DNA of 44,244 nt from NCBI GenBank assembly GCA_016204035.1, contig JACQLN010000007.1:1-44244 (forward strand), read 5' to 3'. The translations under genes and the position numbers were made by a program. Below the pieces are notes generated by a model. The model was not told where the DNA came from and ran no database searches. It was given only the letters and a program-made list of their open reading frames with translations. Positions 24,469 to 27,863 of the stretch are shown here, piece by piece (the stretch's first letter is position 1; each line of letters opens with the position of its first letter). This DNA is from Parcubacteria group bacterium. GTDB taxonomy: Bacteria > Patescibacteriota > Minisyncoccia > JACQLN01.

Positions 24469-26757
24469 TCAACTAGAAATTGCTGATTTCTCGCCTCCAT
24501 TATCCGGCCCATTAACTCCTGTGTCAACCCGACCAATAAGAACCTCTCTGGGCTTGGCGCCTTCACCTGGCCCTATTAGGCCTTGGGCTTCTAAAATATC
24601 CAGCAATCGGGCGGCCCGCGCGTAACCCACGCGCAACCGGCGTTGTAAAAGTGAAGCCGAGGCCTTGCCGGCCTGCATAATCGCCTCTTTGGCGGAAGGC
24701 AAAAGTTCATCTTCGTCTTCGTTTTCATCTACCCTATCAAAATCCACAGCCAAAGAAGTTTTACCTGACCCAAACGAAACTGAGGGGCTGCCGGCTACGG
24801 CTTTTTCCAAACCCAGGGCCTCGTCAGGATTAACATCGGGAGCGTCTTCGGGCAAATTGGATTTTATAAAGCCGACCACTTTTTTAACTTCTTTTTCCGA
24901 AACATAAGTGCCTTGGATTCTTTTGGGTTTGCCGGAATCGGCCGACACAAAAAGCATATCGCCCGAACCCAACAATTTTTCGGCGCCGGCCAAGTCTAAA
25001 ATAGTGCGCGAATCTATTTGCGAAGCCACCGCGAAAGCCGCGCGGGTGGTGATGTTGGCTTTGATCAAACCCGTAATAACCTCCACCGAAGGCCGCTGGG
25101 TGGCTAAAACCAAATGTATACCCACCGCCCGGGCCATCTGGGCCAAGCGCACCACCGCGCCTTCTATTTCCCGGCCGTAAGCGGCCATCAAATCGGCCAA
25201 CTCATCAATTATTATTACCAAGTAGGGCATTAAATCTTCACCTTTTTTGGCGTTGACTTGCGAATTATAGCCGGCAATATCCCTGACGCCTTTTTCCGAA
25301 AGCGCCGTGTAGCGGCGTTCCATTTCCGAAACCGACCACTTAAGCGCCGAGACGACTTTTTTGGGTTCCACCACCACCGGAGTCAGTAAATGAGGTATGC
25401 CGTTGTAAAGCGTCAGTTCCACCCGTTTGGGGTCCACCATAATGAAGCGCAAGATTTCGGGTGAATGCTGATACAGTAAATTGATAATCATGGAATTGAT
25501 GGCCACGCTTTTGCCCGAACCGGTGGCTCCGGCGATCAATAGATGGGGCATCTTGGTTAAAGTAGCCCAAACGGAACGCCCGGAAACGTCTTTGCCTAAA
25601 CCGATGTTAAGAAAGTTTTTTTGTTCCGATTGATCAAAAGATTGGAGCATGCCTTTTAAGCGGACCACCATGGATTTATGATTGGGAATTTCTATGCCCA
25701 CCAAAGATTTTCCCGGAATAGGCGCTTCTATTCTTATGGGATGCACCGCCAAGGCCAAAGAAAGATCGTTTTGCAACGCAGTGATTTTGGCCAGCTTGAC
25801 TCCAGTAGCCGGTTTCAAGGTAAATTGGGTTACCGCCGGACCGATGTTAACTTCGGACATTTCCACGGGTATGCCAAAGTTCTCCAAAGTTTTTTGGATG
25901 ATTACGGCATTGGCTTTAATATCGCCGGTGACCGGCATGGCGCCCTCGTCTTCCAATAAATCCACCGGCGGAAATTTATAACCGCCGGCTAAAGGCAAAA
26001 CATTGAACCCGAGCGTTCCTTCTTGTTTTTTTACGGCGGGTTCGGCGGGTTTAACCGGCGCGGTTTGGGGAGAATTTATGGTTACTGTCTCTACCGCCGG
26101 TTTAGGCGGTTCTATTTTTTTAACGGCCGACAGTTTGGTTTTATTGGCGAGAGTGGCCATTTTAGTCACCAACCCTTTTTCTAAAACCAGTTTTCTTTCG
26201 GGAACCATTTCGCCGGCTTCATCGGGCTTAAAAGTGATTTTTTCTTTTATTTGATCTTTTAAGGGAATGCGGAACGAAATTAAAATAGCCGAAAAAAAGA
26301 AGGCCGCAAAAAATATAAAAGAACCCCAGAAACCAAAAAGATACAAAAACGGCCAGCCAACGTAATAACCCGTTTCGCCGCCGGCATGGTTTTTGGACAA
26401 CAACTCAATAATTCCCAGAAAACTTAAAATCAACACCGCTCCGCCCACTATGGTTGAACCCAGTATCTTCTTTTTTTCGGAAAAAAGAATAAAAACCGCC
26501 ATCAAGAAAAACGTTAATGGCACAAAAAAACTGCCCGCGCCGAAAAGATATCCGGCGCCGTCGGTTATGGCTTGGGAAAACGATCCGGACAGGCCGAAAA
26601 AAGACAGGGTGGTAACCAAAGATAAAGCTAAAAGGATAATACCCACCACGCTCCGTTTGACGCTTGATTCCAAATGGAGCCAAGAAGACGATTTTTTTGA
26701 CCGGCGCTGTATTTTTCTGTCTGACTTTGAAAATTCTTTGTCGTTGAATGCGGGCAT
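24469..26757 (-). CDS. ftsK: DNA translocase FtsK
   Basis: 762 aa with N-terminal TM segments, GATGSGKS, IIDELADL, and a gamma domain (LLQRRLRVGYARAARLLD). Confidence 0.95.
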   Translation of the reverse strand: MPAFNDKEFSKSDRKIQRRSKKSSSWLHLESSVKRSVVGIILLALSLVTTLSFFGLSGSFSQAITDGAGYLFGAGSFFVPLTFFLMAVFILFSEKKKILGSTIVGGAVLILSFLGIIELLSKNHAGGETGYYVGWPFLYLFGFWGSFIFFAAFFFSAILISFRIPLKDQIKEKITFKPDEAGEMVPERKLVLEKGLVTKMATLANKTKLSAVKKIEPPKPAVETVTINSPQTAPVKPAEPAVKKQEGTLGFNVLPLAGGYKFPPVDLLEDEGAMPVTGDIKANAVIIQKTLENFGIPVEMSEVNIGPAVTQFTLKPATGVKLAKITALQNDLSLALAVHPIRIEAPIPGKSLVGIEIPNHKSMVVRLKGMLQSFDQSEQKNFLNIGLGKDVSGRSVWATLTKMPHLLIAGATGSGKSVAINSMIINLLYQHSPEILRFIMVDPKRVELTLYNGIPHLLTPVVVEPKKVVSALKWSVSEMERRYTALSEKGVRDIAGYNSQVNAKKGEDLMPYLVIIIDELADLMAAYGREIEGAVVRLAQMARAVGIHLVLATQRPSVEVITGLIKANITTRAAFAVASQIDSRTILDLAGAEKLLGSGDMLFVSADSGKPKRIQGTYVSEKEVKKVVGFIKSNLPEDAPDVNPDEALGLEKAVAGSPSVSFGSGKTSLAVDFDRVDENEDEDELLPSAKEAIMQAGKASASLLQRRLRVGYARAARLLDILEAQGLIGPGEGAKPREVLIGRVDTGVNGPDNGGEKSAISS

Positions 26758-26826
26758 TTTAGATAGGATGATACGGAAAAATCATACCATATAAAAAAAC
26801 CGAGCAACAGCCCGGTAACATCAAAG

Positions 26827-26855
26827 TTGACAAACTTTTAGCTATAGATTAAGAT
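26827..26855 (+). promoter_or_regulatory. Sigma70-type promoter of the small RNA operon
   Basis: TTGACA, 17-nt spacer, TAAGAT. Confidence 0.55.
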
Positions 26856-26871
26856 GGTTTTCTGTTCTTTA

Positions 26872-26954
26872 GGGGCGGTGCGGCGTGAGCCTCCTCTGGA
26901 CAGCCGGGGAAACCCTGCTGAAGATGGTATAAGTAAACCCATCCCCGCCCACCA
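26872..26954 (+). ncRNA. Cloverleaf-like (tRNA-like) structured RNA ending in ACCA, class unknown
   Basis: GGGCGG (26873-78) pairs with CCGCCC (26945-50) and is followed by ACCA. Three internal hairpins are present: GGC-GUGA-GCC; CAGCCGGG-GAAA-CCCUGCUG; GAUGG-11 nt-CCAUC. The last abuts the 3' acceptor-like strand. Confidence 0.4.
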
Positions 26955-26961
26955 ATTGTGT

Positions 26962-27059
26962 TCCGCGGTAGCTCAGAGTGTTGAAGGTACCTCTTCAACC
27001 GGCAGAGCCGCCAGCCGCGAGCTGGCAGGTCGGTGGTTCAAGTCCACCCCGCGGAACCA
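26962..27059 (+). tRNA. tRNA-Arg(GCG)-like gene with a 20-nt hairpin inserted in the D-loop and C at position 33
   Basis: Manual fold. The acceptor is TCCGCGG/CCGCGGA with A73 and an encoded CCA. The D stem is GCTC/GAGC, with the hairpin at 26980-26999 inside the loop. The anticodon stem is GCCAG/CTGGC with loop CCGCGAG. The variable loop is AGGTC and the T arm is GGTGG-TTCAAGT-CCACC. Confidence 0.7.
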
Positions 27060-27064
27060 ATCCC

Positions 27065-27096
27065 CCCTCCGGCGTCACCGCGTCGGAGGGATTTTT
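27065..27096 (+). terminator. Rho-independent terminator of the RNA operon
   Basis: CCCTCCG-12 nt-CGGAGGG followed by ATTTTT. Confidence 0.7.
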
Positions 27097-27113: not shown

Positions 27114-27863
27114 AAGGGCGGTCCTTCCCATAAATTTCCTAAGAATTTTCATTATTTTTATAAGAAAGCCAGTCAAAAACAAAATCTTTGAAGATTCTCT
27201 TTGAACCAAAATAATCCGGAAAAACTTCAGTATTCAAAATTTTCCTTTCCAATCTTTCAATACCAATATAATCAAAATAACTTGAGTAACTGTAATCACT
27301 CAAAAATTTCTGCGCAGCAAAACTATTCTTAATACCAATCTCTTTCCAGTTAGATTCTATCAATTTAATAGGATTCAAATGTATGTAGGCGAAAACATAC
27401 TTTAAATATTCATCTTTACTAATATGTTTTGCCTGAAACCTGCTTTGAAACAAGGAGCCGTCGCGCTCATATTTTTTATTGAAATACATAGAATAGCCAG
27501 TGGATACTTTACCCATAAATTTAGAAACACCTCCGACTTCTGTTTCTTTTACAAGTAAATGAAAATGATTCGGCATGAGTACATAAGCGCCTAGAGCAGT
27601 AATAAGGTCACCAGTATCTATGGACAGAATATCCCGGAAGGACCGCCCTTCCTGAATATGCTCTGCAATATCAACAGGATTGTTGCTATTGCAGAGATAA
27701 AGAAGCATTAAAAAACGTCTATAATCCATATCTGAACCAAATATAAACCTCTTATCTACACCCCGATTATAGATGTGATAATATTCATCCAAAGAAAAAT
27801 CAAAACCACGTTCCATATAACCTATTATAATCCCTTAGGAAATTTATGGGAAGGGCGGTCCTT
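27114..27863 (-). mobile_element. IS200/RAYT-like unit: a Y1 transposase gene bracketed by composite repeats
   Basis: A 17-bp perfect inverted repeat is present: CCCATAAATTTCCTAAG (27127-27143) with CTTAGGAAATTTATGGG (27834-27850). A 13-bp direct repeat AAGGGCGGTCCTT lies at 27114-27126 and 27851-27863. Confidence 0.65.
27139..27816 (-). CDS. IS200-like / REP-associated tyrosine (Y1, HUH) transposase
   Basis: 225 aa: YHIYNRG, HUH motif MPNHFHLLV, catalytic Tyr region YIHLNP. TATAAT lies 7 nt upstream of the ATG (leaderless). Confidence 0.8.
   Translation of the reverse strand: MERGFDFSLDEYYHIYNRGVDKRFIFGSDMDYRRFLMLLYLCNSNNPVDIAEHIQEGRSFRDILSIDTGDLITALGAYVLMPNHFHLLVKETEVGGVSKFMGKVSTGYSMYFNKKYERDGSLFQSRFQAKHISKDEYLKYVFAYIHLNPIKLIESNWKEIGIKNSFAAQKFLSDYSYSSYFDYIGIERLERKILNTEVFPDYFGSKRIFKDFVFDWLSYKNNENS

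Follow-up and report, generated by a model that had tools for sequence, protein, structure and literature searches.

Whether a gene with the complete outline of a transfer RNA (tRNA) is kept for reading codons or for its shape is the question raised by a locus on contig JACQLN010000007.1 of the Parcubacteria group bacterium assembly GCA_016204035.1 (positions 1 to 44,244, a stretch of 44,244 nucleotides [nt], referred to here as the window). This genome, designated G000, is a 536-kb metagenome-assembled genome (MAG) of the Patescibacteria/candidate phyla radiation (CPR) in 58 contigs, 78% complete, from an ultra-small groundwater bacterium whose close relatives are filed as Candidatus Sungbacteria. 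A 98-nt tRNA-shaped gene, designated Y, carries a hairpin within its D-loop and was labeled tRNA-Arg(GCG)-like in a preliminary description of the sequence. Comparison with relatives leads us to put at about even the chances that Y is a tRNA-derived small RNA selected for tRNA shape and not for codon reading, a mimic or scaffold in which the hairpin would be retained as an additional arm. Y is viewed as a mimic or scaffold rather than a decoder because the parts that selection preserves, namely, the acceptor stem, the D stem, the T arm, and the core, make up the tRNA half that RNase P, the CCA enzyme, EF-Tu, and many tRNA-binding proteins and toxins recognize.

Anatomy of the tRNA-shaped gene Y

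The features of the locus, all on the forward strand, are as follows.

26827 to 26855, forward: sigma-70-type promoter (TTGACA, 17 nt, TAAGAT), from a consensus scan with 10 of 12 matches
26872 to 26954, forward: 83-nt tRNA-like RNA, designated X, recognized by conservation of its fold in orthologs
26962 to 27059, forward: 98-nt tRNA-shaped gene Y, recognized by its Rfam tRNA score, cloverleaf minimum free energy (MFE) fold, and compensatory pairs
26980 to 26999, forward: inserted 8-bp hairpin with loop UACC between D-loop positions 17 and 18, from the predicted fold and identical in sister strains L094 and L106
27010 to 27026, forward: anticodon-type arm with a 5-bp stem, loop CCGCGAG (27015 to 27021), C33, and a C32-G38 pair, from fold energy and strain comparison
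27032 to 27048, forward: canonical T arm of 5 bp with a 7-nt T-loop, seen in the sequence and in its alignment to the Rfam model, with one compensatory pair change relative to congener G007
27056 to 27059, forward: discriminator A73 and encoded CCA, read from the sequence
27065 to 27096, forward: intrinsic terminator with an 11-bp stem and a T run, from a terminator scan

Each anatomical statement of the preliminary description, which had placed all standard tRNA elements in register, agreed with both the sequence and the MFE fold. The acceptor stem of 7 bp (26962 to 26968 with 27049 to 27055) is followed by U8 and A9, the D stem is 4 bp (26971 to 26974 with 27005 to 27008), and the variable loop is 5 nt. 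The nucleotides of the tRNA core are complete (U8, A14, G15 with C48, G18, G19, A21, G53-C61, and the T-loop). The MFE fold is a cloverleaf of -45.1 kcal/mol (z = -3.9), and none of 200 shuffled sequences was as stable. The hairpin with its UACC loop inside a 30-nt D-loop was likewise found as described; seven of its pairs are Watson-Crick and one is G.U, and it exits the D-loop just 5' of G18 and G19, in a stretch that is naturally variable in length.

Annotation programs handle the gene poorly. The Rfam tRNA family (RF00005) matches Y with 43.9 bits against a gathering score of 29, over model positions 1 to 71 and with a 27-nt D-loop insertion, a match that requires permissive filters and was missed by the default scan. 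ARAGORN detects the same 98 nt as a gene but calls it tRNA-Gly(acc), which was discarded as a forced misfold. Among Rfam families, the tRNA family alone reaches significance between 26700 and 27300, and no transfer-messenger RNA (tmRNA) was found by ARAGORN in the window or in G000. Annotators should be cautious, as both the tRNA-Gly(acc) call and the plain reading as tRNA-Arg(GCG) are probably wrong.

The arginine label could not be upheld. A canonical tRNA-Arg(GCG) with A20 and U33 is encoded on another contig of G000 (C37:936-1008), so that a search for another tRNA decoding CGY codons, proposed in the preliminary description, gave a positive result. The three canonical Arg tRNAs of the genome (GCG, UCG, and UCU) share A20, U33, and one style of D-loop, in contrast to C20 and C33 in Y, and the anticodon varies among orthologs of Y. 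In Escherichia coli and Thermus thermophilus, A20 together with C35 confers identity for the arginyl-tRNA synthetase, A20 being the main determinant in E. coli; Y has C35, and its A20 is replaced by C20. No clear parent emerged among canonical tRNA types, with identity of approximately 68% to several of them. The acceptor stem of the G007 ortholog, with G73, resembles that of tRNA-Asn, which is a hint only.

The anticodon-position arm departs further from a decoder. Closure by C32-G38 is favored by approximately 3.5 kcal/mol over an open 7-nt loop. In G000 and the tRNA regions fetched from two complete congeners, 114 ARAGORN calls have an anticodon of 3 nt, one of them being the misread Y; the other 113 all have U33, and none of the 113 has a C32-G38 pair, making both traits unique to Y. 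The caution expressed earlier over C33 and a possible C32-G38 pair in loop CCGCGAG is therefore supported by fold energy as well as by this survey.

Constraint and variation among orthologs

Orthologs of Y were identified by synteny, the region upstream of ftsK being fetched from relatives (Y lies 205 nt upstream of ftsK). The comparison set consisted of three species of the genus and two sister strains. The copy of G001 was left out; at the orthologous spot upstream of ftsK in G001 (L023 and L095), 98 N are followed by AAAACCA and the conserved terminator. The orthologs are as follows.

L028:4796-4901, forward: Y ortholog of G007, by synteny
L026:319-438, reverse: Y ortholog of G002, by synteny
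L094:2698-2796, reverse: Y ortholog of a sister strain, with FtsK in the 90% cluster of the window's FtsK
L106:2198-2296, reverse: Y ortholog of a sister strain, with FtsK in the 90% cluster of the window's FtsK

Across G000, L094, and G007, all 63 cells of the cloverleaf (21 pairs) hold standard pairs, with double changes at four pairs and single-sided changes at none, an outcome reached by 9 of 500 shuffles. Sliding the partners out of register reduced pairing to between 32 and 48% in the same three sequences. Relative to G007, two compensatory changes preserve the anticodon stem. With G002 added by hand, 10 of the 21 pairs vary, nine by double change and one as an A.C mismatch; the 7-bp acceptor stem of this copy is kept through four compensated pairs, its T stem is mismatched, and it carries extra insertions.

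The comparison of G000 with L106 locates the constraint more closely. Flanking genes differ by 4 to 6.5% overall, and the ftsK codons that abut the intergenic region show 8 to 16 differences per 100 nt, but no difference was found from 26750 to 27017. Over the 302 nt that comprise the promoter, X, and Y, only two changes were identified, C to A at 27018 and one added A, both in the anticodon-position loop; three more lie in the terminator. As the promoter, X, and the body of Y are unchanged beside ftsK codons that diverge by 8 to 16%, all three, including the hairpin, are constrained, and the anticodon-position loop alone is free or driven among the sister strains. The comparison thus shows a tRNA-shaped gene with a D-loop insert that is maintained and not merely present, and in which the usual pair is decoupled: the tRNA shape is strongly constrained and the anticodon loop changes fastest.

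The chance that the locus is an assembly or binning artifact is negligible. The fragmentation and incompleteness of the MAG would favor it, but hairpin and body recur unchanged in the two independent sister-strain assemblies (L094 and L106; GCA_964398165.1 and GCA_016188485.1), which with G000 makes three assemblies with an identical D-loop hairpin, and orthologs occupy the same locus in G002 and G007. The misassembly that the preliminary description had considered is, in practice, refuted by these independent copies.

At the anticodon position, sister strains L094 and L106 have an 8-nt loop, CCGAGAAG. The loop of G007 is CUGAUAA, a perfect Ile-type GAU loop (C32, U33, GAU, A37, and A38), and that of G002 is a long irregular hairpin with a 9-nt loop. 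A canonical tRNA-Ile(GAU) is encoded elsewhere in G007, so the Ile-type Y is redundant there too. We infer from the sequences that a C-G pair capping a GNRA-like loop could form in both the G000 (GCGA) and the sister-strain (GAGAA) versions. When sites that could pair with the anticodon-position loops of G000 and L094 were sought, none was found to covary. The discriminator is A in G000, G in G007, and C in G002, and the G002 copy is without CCA. Y lacks three marks of a decoder, namely, U33, an open loop, and a conserved anticodon.

The orthologs also settled what the preliminary description had asked of relatives: the D-loop is enlarged in all three species (30, 38, and 26 nt) by an insert whose sequence is different in each. 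The inserts of G007 and G002, in the same D-loop, have no sequence in common with the G000 hairpin, and the predicted folds are a clean 8-bp hairpin in G000 and weaker, ambiguous structures in G002 and G007.

Searches by sequence added no further copies. Using blastn, the 98 nt of Y gave only short matches to tRNA arms in 60 relatives; one match over the hairpin in G028 was rejected, as it lies within coding sequence and is due to chance. An exact pattern of anticodon loop, variable loop, and T-loop found nothing in genome contigs, none of 600 pattern matches to the FtsK N terminus in metagenome contigs was confirmed, and a phage collection gave no match.

The operon and its partner RNA X

The acceptor-like stem of X ends in ACCA; two hairpins are capped by GNRA, the T-like arm has a loop of 11 nt, and there is no anticodon loop. 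X also has a conserved single-stranded stretch, CCUCCUCU, which includes an anti-Shine-Dalgarno-like CCUCC. Across its orthologs in G002, G007, and L094, 94.6% of cells are paired and four pairs are changed on both sides; of the five changes in L094, one pair is compensatory and two others give G.U. X is more conserved than Y. No Rfam family matched X, and a model of it (R1) run over a 151-genome sample of the class found only G000 and G002, a further match in G050 being rejected as a tRNA-Tyr. A strict pattern of the X core, searched over all species representatives, gave one true match (the G002 record) and 12 chance matches. The same core pattern in metagenome contigs gave one true match, a Hainich groundwater contig nearly identical to G002; look-alikes on nine contigs with a nonhomologous repeat and one match in unrelated DNA were rejected. 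On this sequence evidence, X appears to be found only in this genus.

The promoter is 100% identical in L094 and L106 and also heads homologous units upstream of ftsK in congeners. A terminator homologous to that at 27065 to 27096 closes the units of G001 and G006, and G002, G003, and G007 share a different one. In G002 and G007, this same promoter drives a His-like tRNA, then X, then Y; in G005, the His-like gene is followed by the contig end. This first gene (G007, L028:4619-4696, forward; G002, L026:540-618, reverse; G005, L024:5-82, reverse) is a second tRNA-His(GUG) with a normal anticodon loop and an 8-bp acceptor helix followed by ACCA, and a different canonical tRNA-His is also present in those genomes.

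Operon content is different in other species. A Gln-like tRNA whose anticodon arm is aberrant precedes a second odd tRNA in both G003 and G004. For G003 (L027:1228-1391, reverse, and downstream), the anticodon arm of the Gln-like tRNA is a long stem with a 5-nt loop, the second tRNA is Gly(GCC)-like with A73 and a 13-nt D-loop, and a structured RNA of approximately 130 nt precedes the terminator. In the second operon tRNA of G004 (L025:3926-4060, forward), 69 nt replace the 7-nt anticodon loop and the other arms are intact. The operon of G006 (L022:1280-1355, reverse, and approximately 75 nt downstream) encodes a tRNA whose anticodon loop is 9 nt (alternatively, its stem is 6 bp, with C33) and, after it, a nested-hairpin RNA whose inner stem begins and ends with the six bases that also bound the hairpin of Y.

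The whole operon is cleanly deleted in L101 (approximately 240 to 260) and L107 (approximately 405 to 420), which belong to one lineage and in which the -35 box directly adjoins the terminator's 3' half. More distant FtsK relatives (L098, L099, and L100) have no tRNA-like operon at the locus. An IS200/RAYT-like gene at 27139 to 27816 occupies the opposite flank of the operon in G002 and G007 and is missing from L094 and L106, which identifies it as an independent visitor at the locus. With its own promoter and terminator, isoacceptors that are encoded elsewhere as well (Arg(GCG), Ile(GAU), and His(GUG)), and its dispensability, the unit has the properties of an accessory tRNA operon.

Other unusual tRNA genes were observed outside the operon. 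An isolated tRNA of G007 (L041:13458-13529, reverse) has U1-A72 and an 8-nt anticodon loop starting with CCG, which ARAGORN interprets as holding a 4-base anticodon; a counterpart was not found in G000. Directly after tRNA-Ala(UGC) in G000 (C23:1953-2039, reverse) lies a remnant with an Ala-type 3' end and T arm and a hairpin-filled 5' part, scoring 19 bits with the tRNA model. G050, from another family of the class, has a tRNA-Thr(GGU)-like gene in a conserved Thr-Tyr-Thr-Trp cluster (L105, approximately 1320 to 1480, reverse) that is interrupted after the anticodon region by approximately 110 nt of GC-rich hairpins, with ten bases masked. The tRNA-Cys and one tRNA-His of G000 (C47:6774-6847 and C25:196-267, both reverse) have G for U at T-loop position 55 (UGCAAAU), and the tRNA-Cys of G002 and G007 have the same G55. 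Complete congeners G007 (L036) and G002 (L056) encode a tRNA-Ile with anticodon UAU besides the usual GAU species.

Alternative explanations and known systems

The hairpin does not belong to any repeat that could be detected. No second copy with up to three mismatches was identified in the 536 kb of G000, and a mobile repeat of the repetitive extragenic palindrome (REP) or miniature inverted-repeat transposable element (MITE) type was rejected on the basis of this single copy. Hairpins with the same 6-nt ends include two near the G006 operon, and their overall count is close to the chance rate. A possible origin is suggested by contig C56 of G000, where a nuclease cassette with pairing ends interrupts the D-loop of a tRNA-Gln-like gene and the broken copy contains small hairpins, marking D-loops as insertion targets in this lineage. 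The hairpin of Y may have begun as such an insertion; its later history, judging from the strain comparison, has been one of constraint. A kink-turn reading of the D-loop was rejected by eye, and a group I intron was rejected because the insert is 20 nt in the D-loop and not at least approximately 200 nt in the anticodon loop, with no match to an Rfam intron.

The three options left for the insert by the preliminary description fared unequally, as the comparative data favor a nontranslational role. Removal of the hairpin as an intervening sequence, by a bacterial route that would splice the tRNA or leave it in two pieces, is the weakest and seems very improbable, even though the insert is placed exactly so that a short normal D-loop would remain. 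The flanks of the hairpin are single-stranded D-loop, and reading of the sequence around it revealed no bulge-helix-bulge, that is, no two 3-nt bulges flanking a 4-bp helix. Neither the splicing endonuclease EndA (PF01974) nor the ligase RtcB (PF01139) was found in G000, G002, or G007 (78, 100, and 100% complete, respectively), whereas the archaeal and bacterial control genomes were detected. An archaeal-type tRNA intron was rejected on these two grounds. An 8-bp helix is also a short substrate for RNase III, and with the hairpin gone the anticodon loop would still be closed and would still have C33.

Y could instead be a working extra decoder of CGY (Arg) codons in which the hairpin is retained as an enlarged elbow and the anticodons of relatives reflect anticodon shifts of an accessory tRNA, which we regard as improbable. 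The complete core tertiary nucleotides, A73, and CCA of Y would suit a decoder, as would the perfect Ile-type loop of the G007 ortholog, and there are accessory tRNA operons most of whose members can be charged, such as the trn operon of Anabaena with 23 of 26 (PMC8421152). Against this stand C33 and C32-G38, seen in none of the 113 other tRNAs, with a closed loop energetically favored; C20, where the three canonical Arg tRNAs have A20; the 8-nt loop of the sister strains, which on an identical body would make a charged decoder misread; and the G002 copy, which has no anticodon loop. A relic, that is, a spare tRNA gene hit by a stem-bounded loop insertion and now decaying, kept only because it rides in the X operon, is unlikely but would account for several observations. 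The split tRNA-Gln-like gene with its hairpin-riddled copy, the remnant beside tRNA-Ala on C23, the added insertions, T-stem mismatch, and missing CCA of the G002 copy, and the loss of the operon in L101 and L107 would all fit it. Decay should break stems, however, and none of the 63 pair cells is broken, every stem change being compensated; the body is unchanged relative to L106 beside DNA that differs by 8 to 16%, and the hairpin is unique in the genome and not a member of a repeat family.

Several observations also weigh against a tRNA-derived RNA selected for its shape. The unrelated D-loop inserts of the three species suggest that the cell may tolerate the hairpin as such without using it, and three related species and two sister strains make for thin statistics. 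Loss of the operon in L101 and L107 indicates that its value is conditional at best, and the G007 ortholog, with its textbook anticodon loop, could still decode.

If Y is such a tRNA-derived RNA, it would be cotranscribed with X from the promoter at 26827 to 26855 and terminated at 27065 to 27096, and its precursor would probably be cut at 26962 by RNase P and then trimmed to the encoded CCA. Y would fold into a normal L-shape on its intact tRNA core, with the 8-bp hairpin projecting beside the elbow and remaining in the mature RNA as a fifth arm. The anticodon arm would be closed, either by C32-G38 with a 5-nt loop or by C33-G38 capping a GNRA-type GCGA loop; with both versions closed, and with C33, it would not be a codon reader. 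The activity of Y would then lie in the upper half (acceptor stem, T arm, elbow, and CCA end), by which it would serve as a mimic of, or competitor for, a tRNA-binding factor.

More tentatively, X and Y may represent a new, genus-specific family of tRNA-derived noncoding RNAs, in which the upper half and CCA end are selected and arms are added or replaced (a D-loop helix or GNRA-capped hairpins). Such RNAs would be tRNA mimics with a fast-evolving contact surface at the anticodon position, for example, as a decoy for, or in escape from, tRNA-targeting nucleases or toxins. If Y is stable in cells, either an additional helix can be accommodated at the tRNA elbow or CPR bacteria put tRNA scaffolds to other uses, and Y together with the 83-nt X would be a small new class among the few bacterial tRNA mimics known.

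Compared with a canonical bacterial elongator tRNA (RF00005), Y shares the cloverleaf of 7, 4, 5, and 5 bp, U8, A14, G18, G19, the T-loop, a 5-nt variable loop, the discriminator, and CCA, and scores above the family threshold. It differs in its 30-nt D-loop with an internal helix, in C33 and the C32-G38 pair, in the variation of anticodon and discriminator among orthologs, and in its redundancy with a canonical isoacceptor. The stem-bounded D-loop insertion on C56 is in the same genome and the same loop, and there too a stem joins the two halves of the D-loop. That insertion is several hundred nucleotides long and includes a nuclease gene and an intact replacement tRNA, and the outer copy is hairpin-riddled; in Y, the insert is just a hairpin of 20 nt, unrelated in sequence, and the gene is otherwise intact and constrained.

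Archaeal tRNA introns occur at noncanonical positions, including the D-loop, and resemble the insert of Y in that a short structured sequence interrupts the D-loop of an otherwise complete tRNA gene; Y differs in its bacterial host, the lack of a bulge-helix-bulge, and the failure to find EndA and RtcB. To our knowledge, no bacterial tRNA gene with a structured D-loop insert has been described, and a literature search for D-loop inserts or tRNA-like RNAs in CPR bacteria returned none. Bacterial tRNA mimics include the tRNA-like domain of tmRNA and the YrlA (Y RNA-like) module, in which, as proposed for Y, the upper half of a tRNA is kept and anticodon function is lost or replaced by another helix. 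Unlike these, Y stands alone as a full cloverleaf whose own 5' and 3' ends lie in the acceptor stem; it lacks a G3.U70 pair, and neither family's Rfam model matches it.

Phage tRNAs with anticodon-loop mutations, which have been proposed as an escape from anticodon nucleases (PMC10264068), are likewise spare tRNAs whose differences from housekeeping copies are concentrated in the anticodon loop. They keep a 7-nt loop and their anticodon, whereas among the copies of Y the length of the loop, the anticodon, and even the presence of the loop change. The trn operon of Anabaena is also an extra, dispensable, separately promoted cluster that duplicates housekeeping isoacceptors and has some nonstandard members or pseudogenes; 23 of its 26 members are chargeable, and noncanonical roles were raised as a possibility by the authors (PMC8421152). 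The operon described here differs in having only two or three genes at a fixed chromosomal site upstream of ftsK in one CPR genus, with structural insertions, a neighbor without an anticodon loop, and a content that varies by species.

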